Notes: generated by a model from the letters alone, not told the origin. DNA of 32,000 nt from Nanobdellota archaeon (GCA_042850255.1 AP031373.1:720001-752000), one strand, 5' to 3'. Positions 2,863-21,622 are shown, numbered from the stretch's first letter. Translations and numbers: made by a program.

Positions 2863-3825
2863 TTATTTTTTATAATATTTTTCAAAAAAAGATAAGGCAT
2901 TATCAGATATACGATCTTCTGTTATTATTCTTTCTAATGAAAGAGGATAATAGCTAGGAGATATTACCTTTACTTCTATATTTCCATTTGATTCATTTAT
3001 TTCTTTTACTGTAACTGGTAAATATGTATAATCCTCATTCCCTCCTATAAGTATGTTAACAAATAATACATTATCATGATCTGCAGAAGGTCTATAGAAT
3101 AAATCTTCTCTTAAATCTTTAGATTTATACCCTTTATATTTTCTTAAACCATTTCTAGATAAAGAATATGCTTTCTCAGATTGTTCTATCTGTCCATTTA
3201 TATAATTTTCTTGTATATTTTCAAGTTTCTTATCTATATTATTTAATTCTGTAAATTTGCCATCTTGAGAAAATGATGTAGAAATTCTAACATAGATATT
3301 ATTAAATAATTCTATATTACTTACATCCTCTACATCATTGGATTTTTTTCTTATTTTTGGGGATGGATATAATTTGTCTTCTAAGAAAGATATAAAATCT
3401 GCAGGAGAATAAAAAATTTTACACTCATGAAAATTACATGCATAAGTATAAGGAACATATATAATAGCTCTTTCACGACCTTCATCTTTTATTAATTTAA
3501 GATGGACATAACCTTTAGCTAATAATTCAATAAATTCTTCATCTTTTATAATACCTTTTAATTTCTCTAAATAACTATGAACTTTAATACCATAATCTTC
3601 TAATGGTACTTCACATTTACTATCATCTACTGCTATTTGAAGTACAGATGTTTTATCATCTCTATATTCAGATAACATTATCTCTCTTCCAATATTATCC
3701 CTTCCAATTATTTCGTATCTCATACCACCTTTTCCAATTTTTTCATCTATCCTTTTCATTTTTGAAAATGGATTATCGAAATAATCTGTTATTTCTTCTT
3801 CTATTATCTCTTTTGCATCGTCCAT
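2863..3825 (-). CDS. hypothetical protein
   Basis: 320-aa ORF with normal, non-shadow amino-acid composition and no motif I can recognise. Confidence 0.6.
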   Translation of the reverse strand: MDDAKEIIEEEITDYFDNPFSKMKRIDEKIGKGGMRYEIIGRDNIGREIMLSEYRDDKTSVLQIAVDDSKCEVPLEDYGIKVHSYLEKLKGIIKDEEFIELLAKGYVHLKLIKDEGRERAIIYVPYTYACNFHECKIFYSPADFISFLEDKLYPSPKIRKKSNDVEDVSNIELFNNIYVRISTSFSQDGKFTELNNIDKKLENIQENYINGQIEQSEKAYSLSRNGLRKYKGYKSKDLREDLFYRPSADHDNVLFVNILIGGNEDYTYLPVTVKEINESNGNIEVKVISPSYYPLSLERIITEDRISDNALSFFEKYYKK

Positions 3826-4455: not shown

Positions 4456-4974
4456 TTAGTATTTGTAATCCTTTAATCTTTGCTTAGGATGATCTGATAT
4501 TCTTCCTAATGTATGATAATCTAGAATTCTTTCTCCTTCTCCATCAACAAATAATTTATAAATTCCATTTTCCTCTATTATTTTACCTAATCTATATTCC
4601 TTAAGCTTTTCACTATAAAATAAAACATATGCTTCTCCTCCAGATATTAAAGATTTTATGTATTGAGACTTATCACTATTTGGAGCATATAACATAGATT
4701 CTATATCTTTTCTCTTAAGTAAATAACCAGATTTTAATTTTCCTGTATTTCTATCAGCAAATCCTATCTTAAGCGCTGCTCTTCTTCCCATAAAAATTTT
4801 TCCAGCTTTTGTTATATATTCAAATTGATAAGTATTTGGCATATATGGAATTTCTTCAATTTTTACACTTGGATTTGTTATATCTGTTCCCCATAAATAT
4901 TGTTCTATTTCTTTAATAGCTTGATCTATGGATTTATATCCGCTAGTTTTATAGTCTTCTCCGAGCCTTTTCAA
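4456..4974 (-). CDS. hypothetical protein; possible 5' extension to about 5059 through a frameshift
   Basis: 172-aa ORF starting at TTG. Immediately upstream in another frame (5059 down to about 4950) is MLFMMSYTLDTILVGRVISGGIDRQQTTVEKA. This comparatively GC-rich stretch meets the ORF at the T4/A4 run 4970-4973. Confidence 0.5.
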   Translation of the reverse strand: MKRLGEDYKTSGYKSIDQAIKEIEQYLWGTDITNPSVKIEEIPYMPNTYQFEYITKAGKIFMGRRAALKIGFADRNTGKLKSGYLLKRKDIESMLYAPNSDKSQYIKSLISGGEAYVLFYSEKLKEYRLGKIIEENGIYKLFVDGEGERILDYHTLGRISDHPKQRLKDYKY

Positions 4975-5173
4975 CTGTAGTTTGTTGTCTATCTATACCT
5001 CCAGATATAACTCTTCCAACCAAGATGGTGTCTAGGGTATAACTCATCATGAATAACATATTTCTAGAAAAGATTTATAAAATTTAATATTATTATCACC
5101 ACTAATTTTTACTAAATTAAATACTTATAATAACTATTTATTACTTTAAATTTATTATAAATTATAAAATTCT

Positions 5174-5581
5174 ATGGACATAAATATAGTAAAAGAAAAA
5201 ATAAATAAAATATATGAATACATTCCATTATTAAAAGTAATAGGATTAGAAATAAATATTGAAGAATTAAAAGAAGATGAAATAATAGTATCTTTTAGTA
5301 GCAAAGAACATTTTTATAGAAAGGAAGGATTCTTATTTGGAGGATTTATAGAATTGGTATTTGATGCTATTTTAGGATTATTAGTAAGAATTGTAAATGA
5401 TAAAAATAATCAGGTAACTGTAAATTTAAATATTGATTTTATTTCTGAAGCTAAAAGTGATAAATTTTATGTAAAAGGTAAAATTATAAGAAAAGGAAGT
5501 TCAATAGTATTTGTAGAAGGTTATTTATATAATAATGAAAAAATATTTGCAAAAGCTAATGGAATATGGAAAATATTTTAA
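5174..5581 (+). CDS. PaaI/hotdog-fold thioesterase-like protein
   Basis: 135 aa. The FLFGGFIELVFDAILG core and the length fit the 4HBT/PaaI hotdog thioesterase pattern (hGG...l.D...g). Confidence 0.65.
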   Translation: MDINIVKEKINKIYEYIPLLKVIGLEINIEELKEDEIIVSFSSKEHFYRKEGFLFGGFIELVFDAILGLLVRIVNDKNNQVTVNLNIDFISEAKSDKFYVKGKIIRKGSSIVFVEGYLYNNEKIFAKANGIWKIF

Positions 5582-5625
5582 TTTGTTGTGTAAAAATTTA
5601 ACAATTTTTCTATAAATTACTACTT

Positions 5626-6362
5626 GTGGATGATAATCTCACTATTATACAAGAAATTCTTAATAAATATGATGACGCTAGAAAATCTTTAGGATTAGAT
5701 AAGAAACTAAAAGGATATAGTCCTATATTTATTATAAATGAAAATACAAAATATGCACATATGATCCTAAAAATAATATTATATTTGTAAATAAGGATAT
5801 ATTAAATGAAGAAAATAAGACAATTTCTTATTATTCAATTATTCACGAATTAATCCATCTAGAAAGAAAATTAAATAGAGATTGCGTAGAAGTAGATATT
5901 CAATGTGAAGATATAGATATTGAACAATGTGAAAATATAAAATATATAATAAAAAATACTGTTTATTCTTCTAACCCATTTAATAATATAACAGAAGAAA
6001 TTTCAACAACTGCAGCATCAATTATTTTCTTGTATAAAATATTTAGAAATTCTATAGACAATATTATAAAAGAATGGAATAAAGTAAATAGTATAAATGA
6101 GTTAAATAAATATGAAAATGATAAAGATTATGCACCATACTGGGCAGGTATTATAATTGGTTATTTAATTATTAAATCTGTAAAAGAAGATAAATTGGGA
6201 AAATTTGCATATAATTTAATAAAAGCTTGCGATATAAGAGACTTAGAAAATATTACATTGGATCTAGCGACAATATTTCCAGGTAAATATACAGATCTAT
6301 ACAACAAAGTAGTAGGATACCTTACTTCATTAGAGGAATCTCAAAAAGCATATAATAAGTAA
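5626..6362 (+). pseudogene. HExxH zincin-like protein, frameshifted (M-family copy 2)
   Basis: The GTG at 5626 in frame 1 gives (M)DDNLTIIQEILNKYDDARKSLGLDKKLKGYSPIFIINENTKYAH and stops at 5794-5796. Frame 3 continues from about 5757 with DPKNNIIFVNKDILNEENKTISYYSIIHELIHLERK (HELIH at 5844-5858) and runs into the tracked ORF ending at 6362. Both halves are colinear with 1767-2522. The EEFTTEA block reads EEISTTAA here, so the putative ligand Glu is replaced. Confidence 0.6.
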
Positions 6363-6579
6363 AAATATAAAAATTTAAATTTTTATAATAACTTTTTATG
6401 AATATCAAGAATGGCGTTAAAAATTTATTATTTAAATTTTTATCTCTTTTTATATCTTTTTTATTTTCTTTAACTAGAATTCCAAAATTTATATTTAGTA
6501 GAAATTTTTTAATTATATTAGTTATATACTCTTTATTTTTTATCATATCACAAAATTCTTTACAATACTTTTTATCCAA
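6322..6579 (-). CDS. possible small hypothetical protein
   Basis: 85-aa K/N-rich ORF with composition like genuine genes of this genome. Its mirror ORF 6398-6655 (+) is F/L/I-rich, as antisense shadows are. Neither ORF has a recognisable motif. Confidence 0.25.
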   Translation of the reverse strand: MDKKYCKEFCDMIKNKEYITNIIKKFLLNINFGILVKENKKDIKRDKNLNNKFLTPFLIFIKSYYKNLNFYIFTYYMLFEIPLMK

Positions 6580-6761
6580 TATGTTAAATATTCAGATTTC
6601 TTATATATTTATCTTATTTCTAATTATAACACTAGGAGCTATTAGAATGGTATGATCTTATATTTTTCGAGACGATTGGCATAAAGAACTATTATAAATA
6701 ATATATATCTACTTTAGAGTGTATACTGAATTTTATATAAAAACACGCAGATATTAAAATT

Positions 6762-7046
6762 ATGGATAAAGAACCTTTCTACTTTAAATCATTTGATAAA
6801 ATTGTAGGAGTTGCAAAAGATGTAGAAGAATTAAAAAAAGAAATTGCCAGGTTATTATATATTGATCCGAAGGTAGTAGAATATCATTTAAAAGAAGGGC
6901 ATATAGTAAAATGGTTAGAATATATAGGAGAAAATGAATTAGCAAAAAAATTAAGAAAAGTTACAGATCCTATTAAAGCATATGAAGTAATAGAAAATTA
7001 TCTAAAAAGTAAAGAAGAAAAAATGGATATAAAAGCTAAGTATTAG
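6762..7046 (+). CDS. small conserved-looking hypothetical protein
   Basis: 94 aa. The pattern is FYF...VGVAKDVEELKKEI...VEYHLKEGHIVKWLEYIGENELAKKL. It resembles a small archaeal domain-of-unknown-function family, but I cannot name the family with confidence. It sits between M-family copy 2 and helical-family copy 1. Confidence 0.5.
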   Translation: MDKEPFYFKSFDKIVGVAKDVEELKKEIARLLYIDPKVVEYHLKEGHIVKWLEYIGENELAKKLRKVTDPIKAYEVIENYLKSKEEKMDIKAKY

Positions 7047-7110
7047 ATTTTTTATAAATATTTATCTTTTTATGTAATATTTCTAAATCTTTTGCATATA
7101 TTTTATATTA

Positions 7111-7962
7111 ATGAATAATAATACATATTCAGATATTATAAAATATAATTTATTAGAAAATTTAAAAAAATATTTAATATTAAATAAGAAAGATTTATCT
7201 ATAGTAGAAAAAACACTCAATAATTATTTTCCATATGAAGAAATAGAGTATAATTTAAATCCTTATAATCAAGATAAAATAATAAAAGTAATTGCTGCTA
7301 TTAATACTAGTATTGTACCATATATATCTACGTTAAAAATCTTTAAAATAGAAATTGATAATAAATTAAAAGAAAGATATAATTATTTAAATTTAGAAGA
7401 TTTATTACAAATATATAGAAGTGCTTTAATAGGAAATATATCACTATTATCTGCAATGAAAGCTTTAATTAACTATTTTGATAATGAAGAAAAGAATATA
7501 GTTGCAGCTAGTGGATTAAATTTTATTATTTATAAAGAAAGATCATTTTTTAAATATTCTAAGTACTTGATATCGCAAATATTCCAAGATAACAAAATAA
7601 AAGTAGATTATCAAAATTTAGATAGATTATTAATAGGTTTAGTTTACGGTCTTTTAGTAAGTAGCATTCTTGATAAATTATTAAAAGATCCTAATTTAGA
7701 TAAATATTTAGAAAAATTATCTAAAATTCATAAAAAAATTGGAAAAATAACCAATAATGAAAAAGCGATTAAGAAAATAATAAAAATTATTTATAAAGAT
7801 CTAACAATATATTTAGATAAAGAAGAAAATAGGGAGTTTCTTAATAGTTTAATAAATTTAAAAAATATTATTAAAGATCTAAAAATAAGTTTTGATAATT
7901 ATCCAAATGTTATAGTTTATATAAATTTGATAGAAAATTTAGAATATAAATTAAAAAAGTAA
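7111..7962 (+). CDS. helical-family protein (P-family copy 1)
   Basis: 283 aa. It carries the N-terminal NLLENLKK motif and the central block NLEDLLQIYRSALIGNISLLSAMKALINYFDNEE, shared with 9922-10794, 10986-11930, 15932-16984 and the disrupted 8891-9879. Confidence 0.65.
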   Translation: MNNNTYSDIIKYNLLENLKKYLILNKKDLSIVEKTLNNYFPYEEIEYNLNPYNQDKIIKVIAAINTSIVPYISTLKIFKIEIDNKLKERYNYLNLEDLLQIYRSALIGNISLLSAMKALINYFDNEEKNIVAASGLNFIIYKERSFFKYSKYLISQIFQDNKIKVDYQNLDRLLIGLVYGLLVSSILDKLLKDPNLDKYLEKLSKIHKKIGKITNNEKAIKKIIKIIYKDLTIYLDKEENREFLNSLINLKNIIKDLKISFDNYPNVIVYINLIENLEYKLKK

Positions 7963-7964
7963 TT

Positions 7965-8831
7965 TTATATTTTTAACGCATTTTTTATTACATTCGGTAT
8001 CTCTTCAATTAAATCTGTAGGTAACACCCCTTCTAAATATTTTTTACTAGCAAGTTCTCCAGCTTTTCCATTTATATATCCAGCAGCACATGATGCAATA
8101 AAAGGATCTTTTGTTCTAATTAATGTAGAAATTAATATTCCAGCTAATGTATTTCCAAATCCTTCTTTTGTCATATATCTAGAATAATATCCTTTTTTAA
8201 TAATTCCAACCCTTTCTCCATCAGATACAACATCTATAGGACCTTTTAATATTATTGTAGTATCATATTCTTTCGCATATTTTTTTACTTTTTCTATTCT
8301 TTCATTTAAATCATAAGAAACTTTTTCTCCGAATAATATATAAAATTCATAAGATTGAGGAGTTAATATAAAATTCTTATTTAATAATTCTTTTTTCTTA
8401 GCAATTGCATATAGTGCATCATCATCAATTATAACAAAATTCTTTATTTTTTCTAGATATTCTGTTACAGTATTTAATACATCTTCATTTCTAGTCAATC
8501 CCCCTCCGATTTCTATTACATCTCTTTTTTCAGATAATTTAATTAGATCTTCAATATTTTCTTTATTTAAATATTCCCCTTTTAATGGATAAACCATTAA
8601 ATTTGGATTATATGATGATATTATCATTGAAGAATATTCTGGAGAAGCAATTGTAACCCAATCTATTCCAGATCTGTATGAAGATAAAGCAACTAAGATT
8701 GGAGTTGTAGGATATAATTTACTACCACCAATTATTAATGCGTTTCCAAAATTCTTTTTTCTTACATATTTTTCCCTTTTCTTATAAACCTGAGAAATTA
8801 TATTTTTATCTACTTCAAATATTTCCATCAC
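7965..8831 (-). CDS. nnrD: ADP-dependent NAD(P)H-hydrate dehydratase (YjeF C-terminal, carbohydrate-kinase fold)
   Basis: NFGNALIIGGSKLYPTTPILVALSSYRSGIDWVTIA matches the GGS..Y.GAP signature. The C-terminal GFGNTLAGILIS matches the G.GD.LAG signature. The length is about 288 aa. Confidence 0.8.
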   Translation of the reverse strand: MMEIFEVDKNIISQVYKKREKYVRKKNFGNALIIGGSKLYPTTPILVALSSYRSGIDWVTIASPEYSSMIISSYNPNLMVYPLKGEYLNKENIEDLIKLSEKRDVIEIGGGLTRNEDVLNTVTEYLEKIKNFVIIDDDALYAIAKKKELLNKNFILTPQSYEFYILFGEKVSYDLNERIEKVKKYAKEYDTTIILKGPIDVVSDGERVGIIKKGYYSRYMTKEGFGNTLAGILISTLIRTKDPFIASCAAGYINGKAGELASKKYLEGVLPTDLIEEIPNVIKNALKI

Positions 8832-8890
8832 TATATTTTAAATTTTTCGTTTAAATACTTATCTTTAAATATAACTCTTATTCAATAAAT

Positions 8891-9879
8891 ATAGATAATT
8901 ATATACCAATTGAAAGATTTAAGAAATACCTAAGTAAAAATCTAAAGAAAAATCTACCAATAAAAGATATAGATGACATTTATTTATCATTAGACTACAA
9001 TAAAATAGTAGAATATTTAAAAAAATCAGACATAGAAAAGTTGTTTGAATATGTAGAACATAAAATAAATATAGAACTTGTTAAAAAAGATAAATATGAA
9101 AAATCTAATGTAGATATAATAGGAAAATATATAGAAGTTGTTTATTCTATACTATATCTAATATATCAACTTTAGAAACAATTTTAGAATTTTATAATGA
9201 AAACTATAAAGAGGAATATTATAAAGTTTTAATAGAAAGTCTTAAAATACTGGAGAATAATCTAGAAAATAATATAGAATCTATAAAATATGGATATCAA
9301 GAGATAACAAATATAAAGATAGAATATTCAAATATTTTAGAATATTTAGATAATTTTTCTAAATTAATATTTAGAATTATTATTGCATTAATAAATACTG
9401 GCACACTTTATGGTATATTAAAGATATTTGAAAAAGAAGATCAAAATATAGAAGGTATATCAAATTCTATAAAAGAGAAATATAAAAAAATATATACTAT
9501 AAAAGAAGAAATAAATAAAAATATAGTAGAATTTTTTGATAATAAGGATAAAAAAATAAGAAAAATCTATATAAATATACTAGAAGAAATTGAAGGAAAA
9601 TCAAAAGATAATTTAAAATATATAAATCAATATATAAGAGATATAATAGAAGATTTATTAAATGAGCATTTTAAAACTAATAAATTTCATTATTTTAAAT
9701 TTAAAGAATATTCGAATAATAAAATAAGCGAATTATATAATGAATTATTGGATATCTTAGAAAAAGATTTGGATAATGATAATAGTCAAAAGTTATTAGA
9801 ATTATTATTATATAAGGAAATACATGAATCTTATATAAACCTAATAGATTATATTAAAAGTAATGTAAAAACCAGATAG
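8891..9879 (+). pseudogene. helical-family protein, disrupted (P-family copy 2)
   Basis: ATA GAT AAT at 8891 aligns with the ATG GAC AAT start of copy 3, and there is no canonical start between the upstream stop at 8852-8854 and 8891. Frame 2 reads IDNYIPIERFKKYLSKNLKKNL...NVDIIGKYIEVVYSILYLIYQL and stops at 9173-9175. Frame 1 resumes at about 9163 with ISTLETILEFYNENYKEEYY...TLYGILK... and runs to TAG at 9877-9879. The shift lies in the atatat tract 9161-9166. Confidence 0.6.
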
Positions 9880-9892
9880 TTTTTATTACTAT

Positions 9893-9901
9893 TTTTTAAA
9901 T
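9893..9901 (+). promoter_or_regulatory. TATA-like box tttttaaat, 20 nt before the ATG at 9922
   Basis: The same 9-mer occurs at the same 20-nt distance before the 15932 ATG. The 29 nt preceding the two ATGs match at 22 positions, including a shared TTACCA. The AT-rich background makes single TATA calls weak. Confidence 0.35.
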
Positions 9902-9921
9902 ATTATATATAATTACCATCC

Positions 9922-10794
9922 ATGGACAATAAAGACGAATATGATACTATAGAGGATTTTAAACTTTATCTGAAGGATAATCTATTAAAGCTTTTTCGAG
10001 AAAATGAAGAGATAGTACTAAAATCTATCAATTCAGTAGATAACAATTTGTTAATTAAATATATATCTGGTAAAAAATTACTAAATATAATGCAGAATAT
10101 TGTAATTAATAACTTATATCCATATTTTTTAGAAAATCTTAACTTAAATATATCTTATAACAATAAAAATTTAGAAGAAATATTAAGCTATTATAAAAAA
10201 GGTATAATATTATCAGCTCTATTAATTTCTACATTAGATGCTACTTTTAGATATTATAACAAAAAAATATCAGAAAAAGAATATTATTCAAAAATAATGT
10301 TCGGACTAGATTATATAAAATCTTTATGTATAACTATGGGAAATATATTAATAGAAAATTACATGAAATTTAAAAGATATCTACTAGAAAATTATATATC
10401 GTCTAATAATATTAGATATGATGTAATAGAATATAGCACACTTTTATACGAAATATCAAAGCATACTATAGAGTATCTGATAGTTTACAGTACGGTATAT
10501 AATATGATTATAAAAGATAGTAAAGAAGATGTTGATGAATTCTTAAATAATATAACAGAAAAATATAACATATCACCAGAAAATGCTATAAAAGAAATAT
10601 ATAACAATATAATAGGATACTTAAATTCAGAAATATACAATATAAATGGTTTTGATAATAAAAATATATTTATTAAGTTTTTAAACCATATTAAAAGAGA
10701 TATTAAAGATATATATAGTGAATTATCAGATAATGAGATTGATCTAAAAGAAAAATTATTATTTTACTATAACTTTATTAGCGATATATTATAA
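9922..10794 (+). CDS. helical-family protein (P-family copy 3)
   Basis: 290 aa. The central block is NLEEILSYYKKGIILSALLISTLDATFRYYNKKISEKEYY. The N-terminal IVLKSINSVDNNLL matches IVSSINTSELENIL of 15932-16984. Confidence 0.65.
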   Translation: MDNKDEYDTIEDFKLYLKDNLLKLFRENEEIVLKSINSVDNNLLIKYISGKKLLNIMQNIVINNLYPYFLENLNLNISYNNKNLEEILSYYKKGIILSALLISTLDATFRYYNKKISEKEYYSKIMFGLDYIKSLCITMGNILIENYMKFKRYLLENYISSNNIRYDVIEYSTLLYEISKHTIEYLIVYSTVYNMIIKDSKEDVDEFLNNITEKYNISPENAIKEIYNNIIGYLNSEIYNINGFDNKNIFIKFLNHIKRDIKDIYSELSDNEIDLKEKLLFYYNFISDIL

Positions 10795-10893
10795 TTTTTA
10801 ATTCTATTTATCTAGATAATTCTGAAATTCATTTCTACTATAATACTATCTATCTTAATATATTTTTAAATATATATTTATATATTACTATTT

Positions 10894-10989
10894 ATGAATA
10901 GCGATCATAAACTATTTTGTCTGGAAAATATAAAAAAAGATAAATTGAAATATGCTAAGATATTTAACCAAACTATTGATTTATTATGA
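10894..10989 (+). CDS. 31-codon ORF, probably the detached N-terminus of P-family copy 4
   Basis: MNSDHKLFCLENIKKDKLKYAKIFNQTIDLL carries the family N-terminal LEN[LI]KK motif. Its TGA (10987-10989) overlaps the ATG (10986-10988) of the next ORF. The TATA-like tttttaaat at 10863-10871 precedes this ATG rather than the one at 10986. Confidence 0.4.
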   Translation: MNSDHKLFCLENIKKDKLKYAKIFNQTIDLL

Positions 10990-11930
10990 ATATTAAAGAG
11001 ATAGGTTATAAATATTTATCAATATTCAAAAAAATAATAAACTATAAATATGAAAAGGAAGGTAAAGAATTTATTAACAATTATATTACAAAAATAATTA
11101 ACAAATTTATAATAATAGAGAGATATGAACTAGAAGAAGCTATAAAAAGAATAAATACCAACTATTTAAAATTAGGAGAAATTCTTCTCAATTACAAAGA
11201 TCTTTTAGATGAGAATTATCAATTCCATATATCTGATATAAATAATTTTGTTAGAGATATAGCTTTTAGTATAGCTGGATATTTATCTAACAAAATAGAA
11301 AATAAAGGCACATATATCAATAGAAGAGATTATAATCATTTAGACTATATAATTTCATCTTATAAGAAAAGTTTAATAGAATCATTGACTCTTATATCTA
11401 CAATATCTGCATTTTATTCTTATTATAATGAAAAAATTGAGGATAGAAATATAAAGAAAGAAATATTTGAATTACTATCTATATCATTTTCTATATTATC
11501 ATACAATCTGACTATGAAAGATATTGTTAGTAATATTTATTCTCATTTAAATAAAATATCTTTAGACGATGAAAATGATCTAATTATAACGTCAGAATCT
11601 TTTATAAAAGATTTAATTTTTATATCTACACTATATGGTACATTAAAAAATAGATATCAAATATTAAAAATATACGACACAATAAACGAAAATAAAATAG
11701 AAGAAATGTTAGAAACAATACATAAAAATTTAGGAGAATATTTTAATGAAAATAAACACTTATTATTAACAATCGAAATGGTTAAAGAAAAATGTTTTAA
11801 ATATAATAAACCAATAATTAGAGATTTTATTAATTTAATAACAAGATCAGAAAAATATATAAATGAAAATACATTAAAATATATAAGAAGTCTATTAGAT
11901 AAAAATATAAATCGATATAATATTAATTAA
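10986..11930 (+). CDS. helical-family protein (P-family copy 4)
   Basis: 314 aa. The central block is HLDYIISSYKKSLIESLTLISTISAFYSYYNEKIEDRNI. The distal ISTLYGTLKN matches NTGTLYGILK of copy 2. Confidence 0.65.
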   Translation: MNIKEIGYKYLSIFKKIINYKYEKEGKEFINNYITKIINKFIIIERYELEEAIKRINTNYLKLGEILLNYKDLLDENYQFHISDINNFVRDIAFSIAGYLSNKIENKGTYINRRDYNHLDYIISSYKKSLIESLTLISTISAFYSYYNEKIEDRNIKKEIFELLSISFSILSYNLTMKDIVSNIYSHLNKISLDDENDLIITSESFIKDLIFISTLYGTLKNRYQILKIYDTINENKIEEMLETIHKNLGEYFNENKHLLLTIEMVKEKCFKYNKPIIRDFINLITRSEKYINENTLKYIRSLLDKNINRYNIN

Positions 11931-12036
11931 TTTTATAGAAGTACTAAAATACGAATTTGATTAATCTTATTATGAAGACTAAATATAAAAACATCTAAAT
12001 GCTTAAAGATTTTACAGTATATAATAGATATATCTA

Positions 12037-12134
12037 CCGGGCGTAGCTCAGCCTTGGTAGAGCGGCCGGCTGTAGTGGATAAAATCCTGGCCGCAGAGAC
12101 CGGCAGGTCGTGGGTTCAAATCCCACCGCCCGGA
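12037..12134 (+). tRNA. tRNA-Tyr(GUA): tRNA-Tyr (anticodon GUA) with a 23-nt intron at 12076-12098
   Basis: - Acceptor stem: CCGGGCG (12037-12043) pairs with CGCCCGG (12127-12133), with discriminator A at 12134.
- D arm: GCTC/GAGC.
- Anticodon stem and loop: GCCGG (12065-12069) pairs with CCGGC (12100-12104), and the loop reads CT-GTA-G.
- T arm: GTGGG-TTCAAAT-CCCAC, preceded by a 5-nt variable loop.
- Identity and 3' end: the C1:G72 pair is the archaeal/eukaryal tRNA-Tyr identity pair, and no CCA is encoded.
- Intron: it sits at the canonical 37/38 position. The bulge-helix-bulge consists of the 4-bp helix CUGU (12070-12073)/GCAG (12093-12096) flanked by the 3-nt bulges AGU (12074-12076) and AGA (12097-12099). 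Confidence 0.85.
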
Positions 12135-12135
12135 C

Positions 12136-12148
12136 TTTTTATTTTTTT
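12136..12148 (+). terminator. oligo-T tract (T5 A T7) directly after the tRNA
   Basis: tttttattttttt begins 2 nt after the discriminator base. Archaeal RNA polymerase terminates at oligo-T runs. Confidence 0.45.
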
Positions 12149-12164
12149 AAATTATCATATATTT

Positions 12165-12707
12165 ATGGAACTTATTATTCTAGAGATCGAAGATATACAT
12201 AATAGAGAATTATTTGATTTTTGGAAAGAGTTCTTTAAAGGGCAAATTTAACAAACTTCAATGTTTTAGTTATATTATTTGGAATAGAAGATAAAAATGA
12301 AATAGAAAGATATAAAGAACTAATAAAAAATTATTTTAAAGATTTAGGTGCAAGCAATATAGAATTTTTAGATGATAAATATTATATAACAGAAGAAAAA
12401 TTTAAAGAATCAGATGTAGTTTATTTAGCCAATGGAGATACAAAAATACTATTAGAGAAATTATATAATAATCAGAAAACTCTGGAAGAATTAAAAAATT
12501 TGATGGAATTTTAATTGGAAATGGTGATGGAGCAATAGTATTATCAAAAAAGAGTACGAACATAAAGAAAAAATTATTAAATACAAAGGATTGGGAATTG
12601 TTAATACAAAAGTATTGATTTATGTTAAACCAGAAAGTATAGAGAAAGTTAATGATAATGATATAATATTATTTGTTATTGGAGATTATGTAGTAATAAA
12701 GAAATAA
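12165..12707 (+). pseudogene. multiply frameshifted gene remnant, possibly a peptidase S51 / class-I glutamine amidotransferase-like fold
   Basis: Four successive frames give protein-like sequence:
- MELIILEIEDIHNRELFDFWKEFFKGQI
- NFNVLVILFGIEDKNEIERYKELIKNYFKDLGASNIEFLDD...SDVVYLANGDTKILLEKL
- FDGILIGNGDGAIVLSK
- YKGLGIVNTKVLIYVKPE...
The layout is reminiscent of PepE-like proteins, but the expected nucleophile Ser context is not conserved. The functional call is weak. Confidence 0.3.
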
Positions 12708-12738
12708 TTTTTATAACATAATATTAGATTAGAATTTA

Positions 12739-13338
12739 TTATTTTGGTAATCCTTTTTCCATATAATTTTTAATTTTATCTTTTAATCCTTCTAAAATTA
12801 TTATTCCATATTCTTCTTTTAATAATTTTTTATTAGCAATAATTTCGGAATCGGTAGTTAGAAAATAATCAATATCAAAATATGATGCAATTGTTAAATG
12901 TATAGCATCTTCCATATGTATACCATAATACGGAAATGAAAGAAATATATTTTCTATCATTTCTTTCCATTCTTCTTTTTCAAAATCTGCAAGTAAATAT
13001 AAATTTAATTCTCTAAAAATATTATCAATTTTATAAGTAATTTCTTCACTAATTTTCATAATAATATCTTCTTTTATATCCTTATAAAAGGCATGAGGAT
13101 ATCTCCATTTATGTATAATTTTCTCTATTGAATATCCTTTTTCTTTTATTAAACATTCAGCTATCCTATTTTTAAGTAATACGAAAATTATTTCATAAAT
13201 AACAAAATATGAAATTATATAAGAAATGTTATATTTAGACTTCAAACTTTTTAATAATTCTAAATAATCTTTATCCAAATAACAATCGACTAAAATATTA
13301 GAATCTAAGTAGATATATTTTTCTTTACTCTCATTCAC
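12739..13338 (-). CDS. PIN-domain protein (VapC-like putative toxin) with an internal insertion
   Basis: GTG start. IYLDSNILVD supplies the N-terminal acidic residue, EDAIHLTIASYF the third acidic motif and FLTTDSEI the C-terminal T.D motif. At 199 aa it is longer than minimal PIN domains. Confidence 0.7.
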   Translation of the reverse strand: MNESKEKYIYLDSNILVDCYLDKDYLELLKSLKSKYNISYIISYFVIYEIIFVLLKNRIAECLIKEKGYSIEKIIHKWRYPHAFYKDIKEDIIMKISEEITYKIDNIFRELNLYLLADFEKEEWKEMIENIFLSFPYYGIHMEDAIHLTIASYFDIDYFLTTDSEIIANKKLLKEEYGIIILEGLKDKIKNYMEKGLPK

Positions 13339-13463
13339 TTTCTTTTCCTATTTTTTAATTCTTTAGCACTTATATAGTTACCAGTTTCTTTTATATACTC
13401 TTCAATAGCTTTATCTACGATCTTTTTTATTTTCCTTAATAAATTATTTCTATTTTTTTTCAT
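13335..13463 (-). CDS. 42-aa ORF translationally coupled to the PIN gene (putative antitoxin)
   Basis: The ATG at 13463-13461 gives MKKNRNNLLRKIKKIVDKAIEEYIKETGNYISAKELKNRKRK. Its TGA (13337-13335) overlaps the GTG start (13338-13336) of the PIN ORF in a GTGA 4-nt overlap. This ORF is absent from the supplied track because it is short. Confidence 0.45.
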   Translation of the reverse strand: MKKNRNNLLRKIKKIVDKAIEEYIKETGNYISAKELKNRKRK

Positions 13464-13574
13464 ATAATTATTTATTATCTTATTAATTTATTAATTTGAT
13501 ACACTTTTGATCAAAGTTATATAACAAAATGATATAGTCTTAATCTTTAATCTATAGGAATATGTCTTATGCTA

Positions 13575-13664
13575 TTAACCAATAAGGATGAAAGTATTAC
13601 ATATTGTTAACAATATTAACCATATTCAACATATTTTATTATTTTGGTTATCAATATTAACCAA
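13575..13664. promoter_or_regulatory. TTAACCA repeat cluster in the divergent intergenic region between the two toxin-antitoxin-type operons
   Basis: TTAACCA occurs at 13575-13581, 13616-13622 and 13657-13663. The 12-mer CAATATTAACCA is repeated exactly at 13611-13622 and 13652-13663. The inverted repeat TTGGTTA-N7-TAACCAA lies at 13644-13664, and the palindrome TTGTTAACAA at 13604-13613. Confidence 0.4.
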
Positions 13665-13705: not shown

Positions 13706-14035
13706 TTGGAAAGATTTTTTGAATCTGCAGAAGATAATTTTAAAAACAAAAGATATACTGCAGCAGGGGAAGACTATGCAAAACCTATTTTTCTAATGAT
13801 CGACGAATATTTAAATAATAAATATAATATTACTGTTAAAGATCATTCGGAAAGAAGATTATTTTTATTATCAAAACAAAAAGAAGACAAAATTTGTGAA
13901 GAATTATTAAATATCTATATTTCTGTTTATAATTTATATAGAGAAACTTATACTAGATCTTTATCATATGAAGAAGCAAATATATTAAGAGAATCTGCTT
14001 TAAAAGTAAAAGATATAATAGAAAATGCTAGATGA
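13706..14035 (+). CDS. HEPN-like domain protein
   Basis: 109 aa with a TTG start. The helical pattern is AEDNFKNKRYTAAGEDYAKPIFLMIDEYL...KDHSERRLFLL...YRETYTRS. It resembles archaeal HEPN domains that pair with minimal nucleotidyltransferases. It overlaps the downstream NTase ORF by 11 nt. I do not see a clean Rx4-6H motif. Confidence 0.55.
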   Translation: MERFFESAEDNFKNKRYTAAGEDYAKPIFLMIDEYLNNKYNITVKDHSERRLFLLSKQKEDKICEELLNIYISVYNLYRETYTRSLSYEEANILRESALKVKDIIENAR

Positions 14036-14612
14036 AATAATAGAAGATCTATCTAAATATTTAAATGAAAAAATTGAAGATATTATAATATTTGGATCTG
14101 TAATGAGAGGAAAAGAAAATCCAAATGATATAGATATAATAATTATATTCAAAGAATTCAATGATAAATTATATTTAGAATTAGGAAAAAATTATCATAT
14201 TATCCCACTTACCATAGATAGCTTATATAATATAAATACTATTTTAATTGAAGCTTTGGCAGAAGGATTTTCAGTAAAATATAGTAAACCTTTAAGAGAA
14301 ATTTTAGGTTTTAGGTCCTATAAAGAATTTGTTTTTAAAGAGATGAAATTTAAAGAAAAAAGTAAAAAAATATTATTTTATTATTTTTTAAATGGTAGAA
14401 AAGATAGAAACAAAAAAGGGATAATAGAAGAATTAAATGCTAAAATTATAAATAAAAATCCTTATATAATTAGAGTTCCCATAGATAAGTCGGAAATATT
14501 TAAGAAAAAAATAGAGATATTTTCTAAGTTAAATAATATAGAATTTGAAATTGAAGAAAGAACTATTATTATAGGAAGAGTAAATATAAACTTCTATAAA
14601 AATAATACTTAA
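14025..14612 (+). CDS. minimal nucleotidyltransferase (MNT) domain protein
   Basis: IIIFGSVMRGKENPNDIDIIIIF contains the G-S ... D-x-D signature of polymerase-beta-type minimal nucleotidyltransferases. A C-terminal extension of about 100 aa has unknown function. Confidence 0.8.
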   Translation: MLDEIIEDLSKYLNEKIEDIIIFGSVMRGKENPNDIDIIIIFKEFNDKLYLELGKNYHIIPLTIDSLYNINTILIEALAEGFSVKYSKPLREILGFRSYKEFVFKEMKFKEKSKKILFYYFLNGRKDRNKKGIIEELNAKIINKNPYIIRVPIDKSEIFKKKIEIFSKLNNIEFEIEERTIIIGRVNINFYKNNT

Positions 14613-15931: not shown

Positions 15932-16984
15932 ATGGGTAATCCATATTTGGTAGATGAATATATAAACAACTTAGAAAATAATTTAAGAAAAATTATATAT
16001 GAAGGTAGTATAAATAAAATAGTATCATCGATAAATACTTCAGAATTAGAAAATATATTAGATACTAAAGATATAGATATAAAGGATATCGTAGCATATG
16101 TTTCTACTATCTTAATAAGTTCTTATGCTGAAAAAAATGGAAATAGGATAAATTTAGATAATAATATAACAAAAAGAATTTTAAATTATTATGAAAAAAA
16201 TTTAATTATATGCGGAATAGAATCTGCTGTAACAGAAACCACAATAAACTTTTTTAAAAATAAAAATAGATTAAAATATTCTGAAGAACCAAGATATATT
16301 CAAGAAATTAAGACCTTTCTTTTAGAATATTTACCTATAGATATGCAAAATACTTTTGGAGATATTAAAAAAATCATAAATAATATTAACAATAGCAATA
16401 ACAAAAGAAAATTAAGGTTTTATTATAAAAAACTAAATGAATTGGTTGATAATCTTTCTAAAAATTTAATATATTTGGGTATAATGGAAAGTTTATTTGG
16501 AGATGTAGACAAAATTAAGGACGAGTATAATAAAGTTAAAGAAGGATTGGAATCTATATTAGAACATTCTTACAAAGGAATAGCAAATTTTTTATCTTAT
16601 ACAATTTATGAATTTCCAACTGAACCATTACAAGTATTTTATTTTACAGAACCTGAAAAATTAAACAAATTAACTAGAGCGCTATATACAACCCTTAAAA
16701 ATAAGTATATAGTAGAAATGTCAAAAAACGAATTAGATAATAATAACATAATGAGAAGTTTTAAGATTTATTTAATAAAAAAGGCTATTAAATATTTAGT
16801 AGGAGAAGAACCAAAATATTTAAGAATTGAAAATAGAAGAGAAGTATATTCTCAATTTTACAATTTATTGATAGATACTAGAAATAATATATATGAATTA
16901 ATAGAAAATGACAAAATTAATCCAGAATATAGAACTACATTTGAAACTTTCATAGAAATAGTTAATAATGTGGAAAATATATGA
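15932..16984 (+). CDS. helical-family protein (P-family copy 5, dispersed)
   Basis: 350 aa. YINNLENNLRK, IVSSINTSELENIL and ITKRILNYYEKNLIICGIESAVTETTINFFKNKNRLKY are colinear with the motifs of the 7.1-11.9 kb array. Confidence 0.55.
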   Translation: MGNPYLVDEYINNLENNLRKIIYEGSINKIVSSINTSELENILDTKDIDIKDIVAYVSTILISSYAEKNGNRINLDNNITKRILNYYEKNLIICGIESAVTETTINFFKNKNRLKYSEEPRYIQEIKTFLLEYLPIDMQNTFGDIKKIINNINNSNNKRKLRFYYKKLNELVDNLSKNLIYLGIMESLFGDVDKIKDEYNKVKEGLESILEHSYKGIANFLSYTIYEFPTEPLQVFYFTEPEKLNKLTRALYTTLKNKYIVEMSKNELDNNNIMRSFKIYLIKKAIKYLVGEEPKYLRIENRREVYSQFYNLLIDTRNNIYELIENDKINPEYRTTFETFIEIVNNVENI

Positions 16985-17097: not shown

Positions 17098-17871
17098 ATG
17101 GTAATAAGGGTACGCATAGATGGTATAGGACTATTTAATGGAAAAATTGGAGGTATTTATAAAACTATAGATAATAGAATAATTTCTTATAATTATAATA
17201 CTACTCTTGAAGAATTGATTGATAAAAGTGTAAGAGAAAGAAGAGAAATTTCATTTACAACTTATTGTTCAGACCAAAATTGTGATTTTTTAGATGAAAA
17301 TCAAAGAACAGAAAATGGAATATCAATTCAAGGTACTTATGTTACACCTAAAGAACCATATACAATCATCACGAAAGGAGAATCTACACAGGACATAATT
17401 GATGTATCTGAACCTCCAAGAGGTACAATAGTTGAAATATTAGCGCATACACATCCATTAAGAAGAGGTCCGGAAACTTATCATTCGGATCCTGACAAAG
17501 ATGTCCATACAATGTATTTCCTAAGAGATATAACAAAAGGTACGTTAACCTTATCATTTGTATTAGGAAGAGATGAAGGAAAAGCTATGTTACCTGTTGT
17601 AGAAATGGATGGCTATAGGTATTACATAGATAATAAAGTTCCTAGTATAAGAAGTTTCCAATTAGCTTTAATATATAACTGTATTCAAAAATTTTATGGA
17701 ACTAATTATAGAATAGGTTATATGGGATTCTATTCTCAAACATATGTTCCAGAACCTATCAATTGTAGACAAATATACTTTGAAGAAGTTCCTATATTTT
17801 ATATGTTTAGAGAACCATATGAAACTATAATAAAGAGAGATAAAAAATTACCACCAATAAAAAGGTTATAA
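17098..17871 (+). CDS. JAB/MPN-like (JAMM motif variant) protein
   Basis: IVEILAHTHPLRRGPETYHSDPD is encoded at about 17437-17496. It fits H-x-H-P ... S-x-x-D of JAMM metalloenzymes, but with 10 residues instead of the usual 7 between H-x-H and Ser. I cannot place the upstream catalytic Glu with confidence. By eye the ORF is more G+C-rich and less K/N/I-biased than its neighbours. Confidence 0.45.
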   Translation: MVIRVRIDGIGLFNGKIGGIYKTIDNRIISYNYNTTLEELIDKSVRERREISFTTYCSDQNCDFLDENQRTENGISIQGTYVTPKEPYTIITKGESTQDIIDVSEPPRGTIVEILAHTHPLRRGPETYHSDPDKDVHTMYFLRDITKGTLTLSFVLGRDEGKAMLPVVEMDGYRYYIDNKVPSIRSFQLALIYNCIQKFYGTNYRIGYMGFYSQTYVPEPINCRQIYFEEVPIFYMFREPYETIIKRDKKLPPIKRL

Positions 17872-18007: not shown

Positions 18008-19293
18008 ATGTATGATGATAAAGCAAAGGAAGTATTATTATCACTGGAAGAAATAGAAATATTAAATAGACTAGTAAATAAAATTAAAGATGATTTAGAA
18101 AGTAAAGGTTATAGAGATGATCAATATATTAAAGAACTTTTAGATATCACAAAAATGATAAATAAATCAGAAATAATTGAAGAATCTGGTATTAAAAAAG
18201 TAAGACTTTCGGTAGGAGAAATATACAAATTTTATAAATCTGCAAATAATCTTATAAGAAATTTAAAAAATGAGAAATATAAAAGTATAGATCAATTGTA
18301 TATTAATGGACTTGGAGCCAGAACTCAAATGATCTTCAAAATTATTTACAGATTTTTAGCTGAAGAAATAGCAAAACCTATTATTGATGATATAAATAAA
18401 AAATTTGGAATTTCTTATAATATAGAAATATTATTAGGAAAAAATGAAATAGAGAGAGAATTTGAAGAAGTTCCAGATATTTATAGTGATGAAGCTGCTA
18501 CGATATACAAACATAAAGGAAAATTATATATATTATTAGGAGAAACTTATAATCTGTTGTCTTCTTATACCTATACCAAAAAAAATGAAAAAATTAATTC
18601 AGAGGATTTAAGTGATTATCAACACAAAGAAGTCCCTTTACCATATACTCTTGTACATGAATATCTACATGAAATACTACAAGAAAAATTGCCAAAACTC
18701 ATAGTATATCTATAGGATTAGAAAAATTATTAGATGAAAATATAGATAATTTAGAATTTCCATATTGGGAAACATGGACTGAAGCATTTACTTATCTATC
18801 TTGGAGAAAAAAGTATGGTACAGATATACCAAAAAGTAAAATAGATCTTCTTAAAATACCAAATCTTTACTTATTGGATATAAAAGAAGTTAGTAATGAA
18901 ATTAAAGGTTATATGAAAGAAATAAAAAGAGAAGAAGATTTAAAGAAAAAAATTGAGGAAATAAAAGGAAAATTAGAAAGAGGAGAATCATATGATTTTG
19001 AAAAATATGGAGTAATAATTGAAAATGTAAAAGAAGCAGAACAAATTATAGAGAATATAGAAAAAGCAAAAGAAGAATACGAAGACAAAATAAGAGATTT
19101 AAGAATGTGGATATCATATGATAAAGCATATTTATTAGGATATATAATTGGAGAAGAATTATGGAACAAATATGGAGATAAATCAATCGATATATTAATA
19201 GAAAGAATAAGTAAATATAATGATATTGAAAATATATTGGATAAAGATGTGATAGAAAAGGTTAAAAATAAATTTAATAGTTATTTTTCATAA
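18008..19293 (+). pseudogene. HExxH zincin-like protein, frameshifted (M-family copy 3)
   Basis: Frame 2 reads ...PLPYTLVHEYLHEILQEKLPKLIVYL and stops at 18713-18715, with HEYLH at 18656-18670. Frame 1 is open from 18673 and reads ...THSISIGLEKLLDENIDNLEFPYWETWTEAFTYLSWRKKYG.... It runs into the tracked ORF 18874-19293. WTEAFTYLS aligns with TTEALTIIFLS of copy 1. The shift must lie between 18673 and 18713, which contains the A-runs 18684-18688 and 18693-18696. Confidence 0.55.
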
Positions 19294-19852: not shown

Positions 19853-20635
19853 ATGAGAAAATTATTGTTAATACCTTCAACATTTACTGGAGAAAAAAGA
19901 GATAAAAAAATCAGGATAGTTTTATTATCACAATTAGCAAGATCTATTGTAAATTTTGGAATAAATGAGATTGGTATATATTATGATAATGATCCAAAAT
20001 TTGATTCTCATGGATTAGGAAGATTTATTGTAAAAGTATTAAAATATTTGAATACTCCTCCATATATAAGAAAAATTGCATTTCCAATTGAAAAAGAATT
20101 AGAATATATTGGTACAGCATTTCCAATAAATTCTTATTATCATAAGGATAGATCTAGATATGAATATGTTTATATTAAAAGAAGAGAAGATAATAAATTT
20201 TTAGTAACAAATGGAGAGAAAGAATTTTATGTAAATATTAAAAGAAAATATAGGAATACAAATATTTTAATATATGATAAAATAAAAAATGAATTATTAT
20301 ATCCTTATGAAACAGAATATTATTTTGGATATGAAGTATTTTATTATAATAAACCATTAGAAAATTTAATAAAAAAATTAAAAAAAGAAGGGTTTTACTT
20401 AATTGCAACATCAAGATATGGAGAAGATATTGGAAAAATAAAAATAGTAAAAAAAGATAAAATTGCAATTGCATTTGGTTCTTTTGCTAGAGGAATTGAA
20501 GATATGATAAAAGATTGGAAAAACAAATTTGATATTAATATAAATATTTGTCCTGATCAAAAATTAGAAACAATAAGAACTGAAGAAGCGATATATTACA
20601 CTCTATCAATTCTCCATTATATTAAAATTCTGTAA
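19853..20635 (+). CDS. putative SPOUT-class RNA methyltransferase (DUF171/COG2106-like)
   Basis: The N-terminal LLLIPSTFTGEKRDKKIRIVLLSQLARSIVNFGINEIGIYYD matches the pattern (iPsS...l..kt...g.iaRa..iF.v.eI.vY.d). The length is 260 aa. Confidence 0.6.
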   Translation: MRKLLLIPSTFTGEKRDKKIRIVLLSQLARSIVNFGINEIGIYYDNDPKFDSHGLGRFIVKVLKYLNTPPYIRKIAFPIEKELEYIGTAFPINSYYHKDRSRYEYVYIKRREDNKFLVTNGEKEFYVNIKRKYRNTNILIYDKIKNELLYPYETEYYFGYEVFYYNKPLENLIKKLKKEGFYLIATSRYGEDIGKIKIVKKDKIAIAFGSFARGIEDMIKDWKNKFDININICPDQKLETIRTEEAIYYTLSILHYIKIL

Positions 20636-21622
20636 ATTTTTTACATAATCCCAGAATTCTGATCTTAAATTATTTAATTTTTCTATAGTTATTTTGCTAG
20701 TTAAATAAAATGAATCTAAATCGTTTTTTCTTCTTCTTAATATTTCTGTATGTAAAGATAAATATGTAAATATCATTGGTAAATTTGAATAACTTCTTCT
20801 AGCAGATTCTAATATATTAAAGTATATAGTTAATAATTTCTTATCTGGAACTATTATATAAAATGAGTTTCCATAACGAATATTTTCTAATAAATTTAGA
20901 TAATATAATAATAATAGTTCTCTTCTTTGTATTTCTCTTGGATAATAACGCTCTCTATTATAATATACTTTTCTTAATTTTAAATATTTAGAACTTGGAC
21001 TTGAAGATTCAACTTCAAAATCTCCTTGATTATTTAATCCCATTATGAAAATATTATCTTCATCTCCCTTAGGATGTATATTTAAATTCATAGAAAATTC
21101 ATTAATAAATTTTCCTTTTCTCATTGGAGGAATTCTGGTATTATATAAACTATATATACCATTTATTATAAATGTTGCATAAGCTTCTACTATTTTAATT
21201 AAAGGAATTTCATATGCCTTATCTCTTAATATTATAACAATAGAATATGGATATTTTTTTAGATTTTCAGGATTATTTATATATTTTAATATATTTTTCA
21301 TAGCATTTAATAGATTATTTTTATTTGGCTCTTCATCCTTATAATAAATAGACCTTTTAACTCTAGTTAAGAATATTAAAGAATTTTTTATATATTTTCT
21401 ATTGTCCTTTTTCCCTCCACATATTTTTTCGTAATAATCATTCGGAATTTCTCTAAATACTTCATTTTTAAATCTTTCTTGTATATTTTTTATTTTTTCC
21501 ATATCAGGAATATAATTAATTTTTTCTAAATTTGGAAAAAATGTTTTATCTATATATTCTATATAACTATCTATTAAATTATCTAACCTGTCTTGTATTT
21601 CCCAAAATATACTTTTACTCAT
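20606..21622 (-). CDS. hypothetical protein
   Basis: 338-aa ORF with ordinary composition and no recognisable motif. Its 3' end overlaps the convergent 19853-20635 gene by 30 nt. Confidence 0.55.
   Translation of the reverse strand: MSKSIFWEIQDRLDNLIDSYIEYIDKTFFPNLEKINYIPDMEKIKNIQERFKNEVFREIPNDYYEKICGGKKDNRKYIKNSLIFLTRVKRSIYYKDEEPNKNNLLNAMKNILKYINNPENLKKYPYSIVIILRDKAYEIPLIKIVEAYATFIINGIYSLYNTRIPPMRKGKFINEFSMNLNIHPKGDEDNIFIMGLNNQGDFEVESSSPSSKYLKLRKVYYNRERYYPREIQRRELLLLYYLNLLENIRYGNSFYIIVPDKKLLTIYFNILESARRSYSNLPMIFTYLSLHTEILRRRKNDLDSFYLTSKITIEKLNNLRSEFWDYVKNLQNFNIMEN

Follow-up and report, generated by a model that had tools for sequence, protein, structure and literature searches.

A multicopy orphan family of predicted all-helical proteins in the Nanobdellota archaeon YN1

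Introduction

Whether five open reading frames (ORFs) of the Nanobdellota archaeon YN1, four of which form a head-to-tail array ending at a tRNA-Tyr gene, are copies of a single protein family, and how such a family would have arisen and what it might do, is the question raised by a 32,000-nucleotide stretch of its genome (GCA_042850255.1, AP031373.1:720001-752000; hereafter the window, from whose first letter all positions are counted). Very few Nanobdellota have been cultivated, and YN1 is among them. DPANN genomes frequently contain orphan gene families, and the expansion of lineage-specific, fast-evolving hypothetical proteins is to be expected there. YN1 is an obligate ectosymbiont with a narrow host range that lives on Sulfurisphaera ohwakuensis, and its circular genome comprises 773,326 bp with 889 coding sequences and a G+C content (GC) of 23.4% (PMC11420986). 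The cell bears a huge cone-shaped attachment organelle as well as intercellular and cytoplasmic filaments, with no proteins assigned to either, and the same organelle was reported in Nanobdella aerobiophila (PMC11420986).

The answer favored here, to which we give a probability of roughly 60% as a whole, is that a helical-bundle protein, fast-evolving, cytoplasmic and probably without enzymatic activity, underwent tandem expansion at this locus long ago. The five ORFs delimited in a first-pass annotation of the window were recovered at the same coordinates, four of them intact and one disrupted. They are listed below together with the positions of two conserved blocks.

7111-7962, + strand: P1, intact, 283 amino acids (aa); block 1 at 7381-7491, block 2 at 7618-7671
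8891-9879, + strand: P2, pseudogene, about 330 codons if repaired
9922-10794, + strand: P3, intact, 290 aa; block 1 at 10159-10269, block 2 at 10468-10515
10986-11930, + strand: P4, intact, 314 aa; block 1 at 11328-11438, block 2 at 11604-11651
15932-16984, + strand: P5, intact, 350 aa, dispersed and the most divergent copy; block 1 at 16160-16267, block 2 at 16457-16504

Similarity among the copies

Pairwise identity among the copies is only 21-29% (about 25%), and the relationship was therefore assessed against several kinds of control. The comparisons included P0005, a hypothetical protein of 296 aa encoded on a hot-spring metagenome contig (ERZ1669402 NODE_218, also Logan DRR163688; L002 below). 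BLASTP with composition correction gave colinear alignments of family copies over 130-230 residues at 24-32% identity. Smith-Waterman z-scores of pairs among the five copies ranged from 2.7 to 7.9, against a mean of 0.4 and a maximum of 3.6 in 130 control comparisons between the family and 26 unrelated proteins of the window, and P4 scored z = 12 with P0005. In a strict leave-one-out test, the hidden Markov model (HMM) was realigned without the test sequence, and 1000 shuffles, the reversed sequence and the window background served as controls; P1, P3, P4 and P0005 were retrieved at 24.5, 17.3, 24.8 and 40.0 bits, respectively, with noise at 8.4 bits or less. Pairwise links were obtained by phmmer between P1 and P0005 (18 bits) and between P3 and P4 (18.6 bits), and by BLASTP from P0005 to P4 (47 bits over 208 residues) and to P1 (34 bits), so that the external homologue connects P1 and P4 independently. 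A profile of P2, P3 and P4 was aligned by hhalign to one of P1 and P0005 with a probability of 89% (E = 2.5e-6, 156 colinear columns, a single comparison). The family first proposed from motifs aligned by eye is thus real: the all-against-all scores, the leave-one-out HMM above its controls and the shuffles reveal significant similarity between the copies, and on these sequence comparisons the membership of P1, P3 and P4 is certain.

P2 and P5 were evaluated separately. The Smith-Waterman scores of P2 with P3 (z = 6.5) and with P4 were reached by none of 2000 shuffles, and hhalign of P2 against P1, P3, P4 and P0005 gave P = 0.0024 in a single comparison, at the central block and in the expected colinear position. 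Together with its position inside the array, this makes P2 very likely a family member. The score of P5 with P3 (z = 5.2) was likewise reached by 0 of 2000 shuffles, those with the other four sequences by 5 to 32 of 2000, and the z-scores of P5 against unrelated window proteins did not exceed 2.5. Two single hhalign comparisons placed P5 in the expected colinear position, against P2, P3 and P4 (P = 0.0044, 126 colinear columns) and against P1, P3, P4 and P0005 (P = 0.025), and on these scores P5 is a probable member of the family. A block-only HMM of 37 columns had too little power to tell P2 and P5 from shuffles.

Conserved blocks and motifs

Block 1 is followed by block 2, and all local alignments are colinear. 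The former follows the pattern [ND]L[DE]xI[LI]xxYxKxLIxxxxLISTxxAxxxYYN with an invariant Tyr, reading DLDTILNLYSKALVGAISLLSVLYALRDYI in P0005 and NLEDLLQIYRSALIGNISLLSAMKALINYF in P1, and the latter an LIxxSTLYGxL-like pattern. The alignment of the five copies and P0005 (six sequences) contains only one invariant column, a Tyr (Y126 in P4 numbering), and no conserved constellation of Asp, Glu, His, Cys, Lys or Arg; most of the conserved positions fall in two hydrophobic core helices. The central block and the distal TLYG.LK block occur as they had been quoted in the first-pass annotation. Its N-terminal pattern, L[EKS][ND]N[LI].K, fits literally in P3 and P5 and in none of the others, and its 'IV..SIN' motif common to these same two copies is present, offset by one residue in P5.

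The two blocks are themselves alike in P4 (LTLISTISAFY and LIFISTLYGTL). When six segment pairs were compared by hhalign, block 1 versus block 2 was the best (P = 0.0013; 0.05-0.7 for the other five), and this weak likeness hints at an internal duplication in the sequence.

Predicted structure and protein properties

The AlphaFold2 model of P0005 has a mean predicted local distance difference test score (pLDDT) of 73.7 and a predicted template modelling (TM) score of 0.75, and DSSP assigned to it 11 helices, the longest of about 30 residues (range about 20-32). Only helices were assigned in both of the models obtained, those of P4 and P0005, in agreement with the earlier description of the family as all-helical. 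The best 19-residue Kyte-Doolittle means in the family are 0.9-1.9 (1.9 in P1 and P2, 1.7 in P0005 and 0.9-1.3 in P3, P4 and P5), compared with 3.0 for the Na+/H+ exchanger encoded in the window. Hydropathy below that of the exchanger, with no convincing transmembrane segment, led us to reject the possibility that these are transmembrane proteins, and direct reading of the N-termini revealed no signal peptides. With the six-sequence alignment described above, the earlier statement that the copies lack transmembrane segments, signal peptides and catalytic signatures is borne out. The net charge varies from +10 in P1 to -8 in P3.

Organization of the array

The array proper consists of P1 to P4, which account together with P5 for about 0.6% of the YN1 genome. 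Three further features define its layout.

7965-8831, - strand: nnrD (NAD(P)H-hydrate dehydratase), Pfam Carb_kinase PF01256, E = 1.8e-42; not a family member
9893-9918, + strand: promoter-like element (TATA-like box and TTACCA), just upstream of P3
12037-12135, + strand: tRNA-Tyr(GUA), Rfam RF00005, 57.4 bits, also found by aragorn -i

As had been described, the four copies are arranged head-to-tail, interrupted solely by the oppositely oriented nnrD, and end at tRNA-Tyr, all of which was confirmed with Pfam, Rfam and aragorn -i. The nnrD gene is convergent with P1, their stop codons being 2 nt apart, and the stop codon of P4 lies 106 nt before the tRNA gene, which has an intron of 23 nt at the canonical position. 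With 68% GC in a 20% GC genome, this tRNA was missed by ARAGORN in its default mode and detected by Rfam and by aragorn -i; a 65-aa ORF that overlaps it (12054-12251, +) is spurious.

The 26-nt element TTTTTAAAT..ATTATATAT..TTACCA is nearly identical upstream of P3 and of P5 (15903-15928) and ends 3 nt before the ATG in both cases. Because the pattern used in the search came from the P3 and P5 sites themselves, the element is suggestive only. A similar element also precedes the HEPN-like gene at 13706, so the likeness of the P3 and P5 sites may mark a promoter class rather than paralogy. TATA-like boxes stand about 25-30 nt ahead of the start codon at many window genes, a spacing that would fit leaderless transcripts.

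P2 as a pseudogene

Two independent disabling lesions were identified in P2. The first is the loss of its start: codon 8891-8893 is ATA where the aligned position of P3 is ATG, and no ATG, GTG or TTG occurs between the upstream stop and 9041. The second is a 2-nt frameshift at 9161-9162, within the TA run CTAATATATCAAC; frame 1 reads ...SILYL up to 9160 and ends at a premature stop (9173-9175), and the homology resumes in a different frame as ISTLETILEFYNEN from 9163. An error of sequencing or long-read assembly was ruled out as the cause with Logan run DRR287338, a coculture of YN1 with Sulfurisphaera ohwakuensis YN1HA, whose Illumina-only contigs were assembled independently of the window sequence. 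These contigs are 100% identical to the window across 4965-9658 and 9629-13616, P2 lesions included, and the lesions are therefore real.

Distribution and the outside homologue

The profile of the five copies was searched against 1.84 billion representative proteins, one for each 50%-identity cluster of about 15 billion, and only P1, P3, P4, P5, a 43-aa fragment of P2 and P0005 (E = 7.5e-4) were obtained. The library includes the YN1 proteome, in which exactly these five copies were found; where the first-pass annotation had 'at least five', the number stands at five and no more. P3, the five-copy alignment and P0005 were also used in word-indexed searches, in which nothing but the queries themselves came back. 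Degenerate-pattern scans, which are insensitive at such divergence, revealed no relatives in GTDB species genomes (with P4 and with the P0005/P1/P4 alignment), in JGI metagenomes (with the P0005/P1/P4 and P0005/P1 alignments) or in IMG/VR viral contigs (with the P0005/P1/P4 alignment), and the five-copy alignment has no stretch conserved enough for a scan of this kind. P0005 had no tblastn match in collections of phages and plasmids, and scanning the window and L002, translated in six frames, with the profile yielded no further copies; a 137-aa ORF adjoining P0005 is not a family member.

P0005 is the only detectable homologue and has the same block order as the array copies. Its 13-kb contig is AT-rich (23.5% GC) and carries archaeal housekeeping genes, and P0005 and P1 each have, no more than a few kb away, a 4HBT thioesterase gene (50% protein identity) and an AAA_14 ATPase gene. 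Unlike the YN1 copies, P0005, itself uncharacterised, is a single copy on its contig, has neither nnrD nor tRNA-Tyr nearby and is less extreme in composition. The family, called lineage-specific at the outset, is extremely lineage-restricted in the profile search; as its sequence places P0005 in the family, it is not strictly strain-specific.

Two further observations concern the P0005 contig. Just upstream of P0005, L002 4916-5028 has 71% DNA identity to window 7069-7179, that is, to the P1 promoter and first 23 codons, and in another frame encodes KYLLEKFLKFLI, close to KYNLLENLKKYLI of P1; this segment may be what decay has left of the 5' end of another copy, or the likeness may be fortuitous in DNA so rich in AT. 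The window, in turn, contains what looks like the remnant of an AAA_14/DUF4143 ATPase gene (2528-2713 and 2739-2833, -), whose ends are 93.6% and 84% DNA-identical to L002 971-1157 and 2141-2235, parts of an intact 388-aa gene, and about 980 bp of whose interior are missing. Between these two contigs, identity of the housekeeping 4HBT gene is no higher than 67%, and the ATPase gene thus looks recently exchanged and then deleted.

Evolution of the family

In shuffled versions of the family genes, the longest stop-free run averaged about 34 codons and never exceeded 113, and none of 5000 shuffles per gene was fully open. With real ORFs of 283-350 codons, the four intact frames are therefore not open by chance and are kept so by selection. 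At codon positions 1 and 2, the GC of the family genes is the lowest in the window (0.21-0.25 vs 0.22-0.37 in the others), whereas their third-position GC is typical of it, and the residues F, Y, M, I, N and K make up 48-54% of the proteins, among the highest shares in the window. This combination points to native genes under weak amino-acid constraint rather than recent foreign DNA. The GC of the window is about 20-22% and dips to 17-18% in the array, a dip that is likewise attributable to amino-acid drift. No DNA-level repeats exist between copies, and the duplications are accordingly old; with identities near 25%, this agrees with the earlier assessment that the copies are old or fast-evolving. 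The two independent lesions of P2 indicate birth and death.

We hold it highly probable that this is a real orphan family that goes back to tandem duplications of some age and whose evolution is one of birth and death. The copies would have arisen one beside another, P5 would have moved or become separated by about 4 kb, and nnrD would have come to lie inside the array. Birth-and-death evolution under weak sequence constraint would have followed, in which selection keeps four frames open and preserves the two hydrophobic core helices (blocks 1 and 2), and the remaining sequence drifts toward AT-rich codons.

Comparison with known families and alternative explanations

No known, widely conserved family was reached by the sequence or predicted-fold searches. 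The best Pfam matches scored 10-18 bits, all under cut-offs of 22-35 bits, and those of NCBIfam likewise fell short. PHROGs (best E = 0.014) and PADLOC (best E = 0.046) gave non-significant matches, each in one member only, and neither the PDB sequence search (best E = 0.36) nor Foldseek against PDB (best E = 0.24, TM score ≤ 0.24) or BFVD (best E = 0.45) gave a significant one. Membership of the HEPN superfamily finds no footing either, since no conserved Arg or His column (Rx4-6H) exists in the six-sequence alignment and no Pfam HEPN match was obtained. In the literature, the main text of the YN1 paper contains neither 'paralog' nor 'hypothetical' and appears not to discuss these genes (PMC11420986), and a preprint of 2026 about YN4, a related strain, has nothing on them. 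The protein family is new, with no database or paper describing it. It falls best among the lineage-specific orphan paralogue families of reduced DPANN/Nanobdellota and obligate symbionts, which are a category rather than a homologous family; shared features are a small genome with many unannotated genes, tandem and deeply diverged copies, a pseudogenised member and the lack of homologues beyond a narrow clade.

Among the alternatives, the best surviving, still an unlikely one, is that the copies belong to a known all-helical family, either the ClyA-type and tripartite alpha-pore-forming toxins or ESCRT-III/CdvB, whose signal was erased by AT drift. SmhB, SmhA, AhlB, ClyA and PaxB were indeed among the Foldseek PDB matches, but with probabilities ≤ 0.10 and TM scores ≤ 0.18 for a P0005 model that is moderately confident, and CHMP3 appeared three times in the PDB sequence search, at insignificant E-values (0.36-0.92) over about 45 residues. 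The Pfam listing, taken to E = 1, includes neither an alpha-pore-forming toxin family nor Snf7. The toxins of this group (Hbl/Nhe, AhlABC, SmhABC) share with the YN1 family an all-alpha nature, a size of about 300-360 aa, adjacent paralogues at about 20-25% identity and mid-chain hydrophobic helices. Two conserved, moderately hydrophobic helices (Kyte-Doolittle means up to 1.9 in P1 and P2) and tandem paralogues of differing net charge (+10 to -8) would be in keeping with them, and the breaching of membranes would be a fitting task in this organism. Toxins and ESCRT-III/CdvB-like membrane remodellers alike would make sense in a parasite by which a cytoplasmic bridge into the host is opened. 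For membrane insertion and pore formation, the hydropathy of the family (0.9-1.9) is borderline. However, the predicted helices of about 20-32 residues are far shorter than those of ClyA-type bundles, the hydrophobic segments of P3, P4 and P5 stay under transmembrane grade, and the copies carry no export signal. The ClyA-family and tripartite alpha-pore-forming toxins are known from bacteria. ESCRT-III/CdvB (Snf7) proteins, which form filaments and cones on membranes, resemble the YN1 family as small all-helical proteins with several diverged paralogues and differ from it in that the latter lacks a Pfam Snf7 match and that no ESCRT-III structure is among the Foldseek matches listed. The toxin and CHMP3 matches, all insignificant, are leads in view of the parasite biology and fail every membership test that was run.

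An origin of the array as cargo of a virus, plasmid or mobile island integrated at tRNA-Tyr is not supported and appears improbable. Such an origin would explain the orphan status and the toxin-antitoxin-rich neighborhood, in which a PIN-domain protein, a HEPN-like/nucleotidyltransferase pair and a DUF488 protein are encoded; the array adjoins a tRNA gene and dips to 17-18% GC in a window of about 22%, and the deleted AAA_14/DUF4143 gene (2528-2833), 84-94% DNA-identical to the copy on the P0005 contig as against 67% for 4HBT, indicates that DNA was recently exchanged here. On the other hand, no integrase, recombinase, replication or capsid-like domain was found in the window ORFs, and the 3' half of the tRNA occurs only once in the window (≤ 3 mismatches allowed), with no att-like repeat, although a second boundary beyond the window is conceivable. 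A housekeeping gene, nnrD, is enclosed by the array, the GC at third positions is as in the rest of the window with the low GC coming from codon positions 1 and 2, and no match was obtained in PHROGs, BFVD, the IMG/VR pattern scans or tblastn against phages and plasmids.

The weakest alternative, that the ORFs are unrelated hypothetical proteins made alike by the K/N/I/Y-rich, helix-forming composition imposed at about 20% GC, can draw on the 21-29% identities, on the block-only HMM, in which P2 and P5 were indistinguishable from shuffles, and on the failure of the leave-one-out test and phmmer with the same two copies, but it is scarcely credible, for the 26 window proteins of the same composition stay at background, shuffles and reversed sequences never come near the real scores of P1, P3, P4 and P0005, every alignment is colinear and centred on the same blocks, and P0005, from a less biased genome, surfaced among 1.84e9 proteins; the window controls, the strict leave-one-out HMM and the shuffles thus reject a low-complexity artefact, which is largely refuted for P1, P3, P4 and P0005.

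Neighboring genes of the window

The window otherwise contains ordinary archaeal genes, including those for topoisomerase VI subunits A and B, the PFOR beta subunit, an M20 peptidase, an SPFH protein, the Na+/H+ exchanger and nnrD, together with several of toxin-antitoxin type, namely the PIN protein, the HEPN-like/nucleotidyltransferase pair and the DUF488 protein. The PIN assignment concerns a 199-aa protein just downstream of tRNA-Tyr (12739-13338, -), with a weak PIN_12 match (E = 5.5e-4, under the Pfam cut-off). The small HEPN-like protein (13706-14035) and the nucleotidyltransferase (Polbeta/NTP_transf_2, 14025-14612) are encoded by overlapping genes, both on the + strand, and from their sequences and arrangement look like a HEPN/MNT toxin-antitoxin module. 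A pair of the same type, with a clear HEPN match, ends the P0005 contig (L002 12430-12789 and 12779-13132), and no sequence similarity exists between the two pairs at E < 1e-3.

A second, younger tandem duplication was observed in the adjacent DUF973 proteins at 22514-22951 and 22974-23369 (+), which retain DNA-level repeats with 427-nt spacing and 79-83% identity. Six other ORFs (235-338 aa) are without a Pfam match, apart from the weak one given below, and are unrelated to the helical family by HMM.

1767-2522, - strand: ORF without Pfam match
2863-3825, - strand: ORF without Pfam match
17098-17871, + strand: ORF without Pfam match
18008-18715, + strand: ORF without Pfam match
20606-21622, - strand: ORF without Pfam match
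23961-24851, - strand: ORF with a weak HEPN match only

Possible function and significance

The products of about 280-350 aa would be cytoplasmic all-alpha bundles without catalytic signatures, most likely serving as non-enzymatic binding or scaffold modules. We consider it more likely than not that they are soluble bundles with a conserved core and freely evolving surfaces, which suggest such roles. The family takes up about 0.6% of the genome of a symbiont with only 889 genes, whose relatives have no detectable copies, so the function may be symbiosis-specific, for example in a host-specific interaction or, speculatively, for cargo passing through the cytoplasmic bridge; a tie to the lineage-specific symbiotic lifestyle is a tentative suggestion, possible rather than probable. 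A direct role at the attachment organelle or the host membrane is doubtful. It is similarly improbable that the copies are host-interaction factors of the YN1 lineage acting as hetero-oligomers, which the opposite net charges of the paralogues make conceivable, at or through the cone-and-filament organelle, where they would, for example, remodel or breach the Sulfurisphaera membrane or help to set the narrow host range.

Several points weigh against the reading of the locus as an old expansion of non-enzymatic helical bundles. P2 and P5 were not retrieved by the strict leave-one-out HMM or by phmmer, and their membership is statistically weaker than that of P1, P3 and P4. Only one of five AlphaFold2 models of P0005 was confident, and the P4 model, built from the six-sequence alignment, reached a pLDDT of 45, too poor for a fold search. 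The expansion is documented only in YN1, the P0005 contig having one copy. A profile made of five compositionally extreme sequences only just caught P0005, so remoter relatives, including those in other Nanobdellota, could escape it, and the apparent restriction may partly reflect limited sensitivity. The role is a proposal from sequence and predicted fold. No homologue beyond YN1 and one metagenome contig was found in the profile library, in which the inclusion of the N. aerobiophila proteome was unchecked; if the absence there is real, the reported presence of the same organelle in N. aerobiophila speaks against the family being a conserved structural component of it.

The family is of value as a set of candidates for proteomics or imaging and does not amount to a discovery, and no new mechanism is shown. 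Should the host-interface reading be true, the copies would provide names for components of the DPANN-host interface. Four intact copies in an 889-gene genome, with no detectable sharing by relatives, earn the family a place on the short list for lineage-specific symbiosis functions, and it offers a clean example of how AT-driven drift erases homology.

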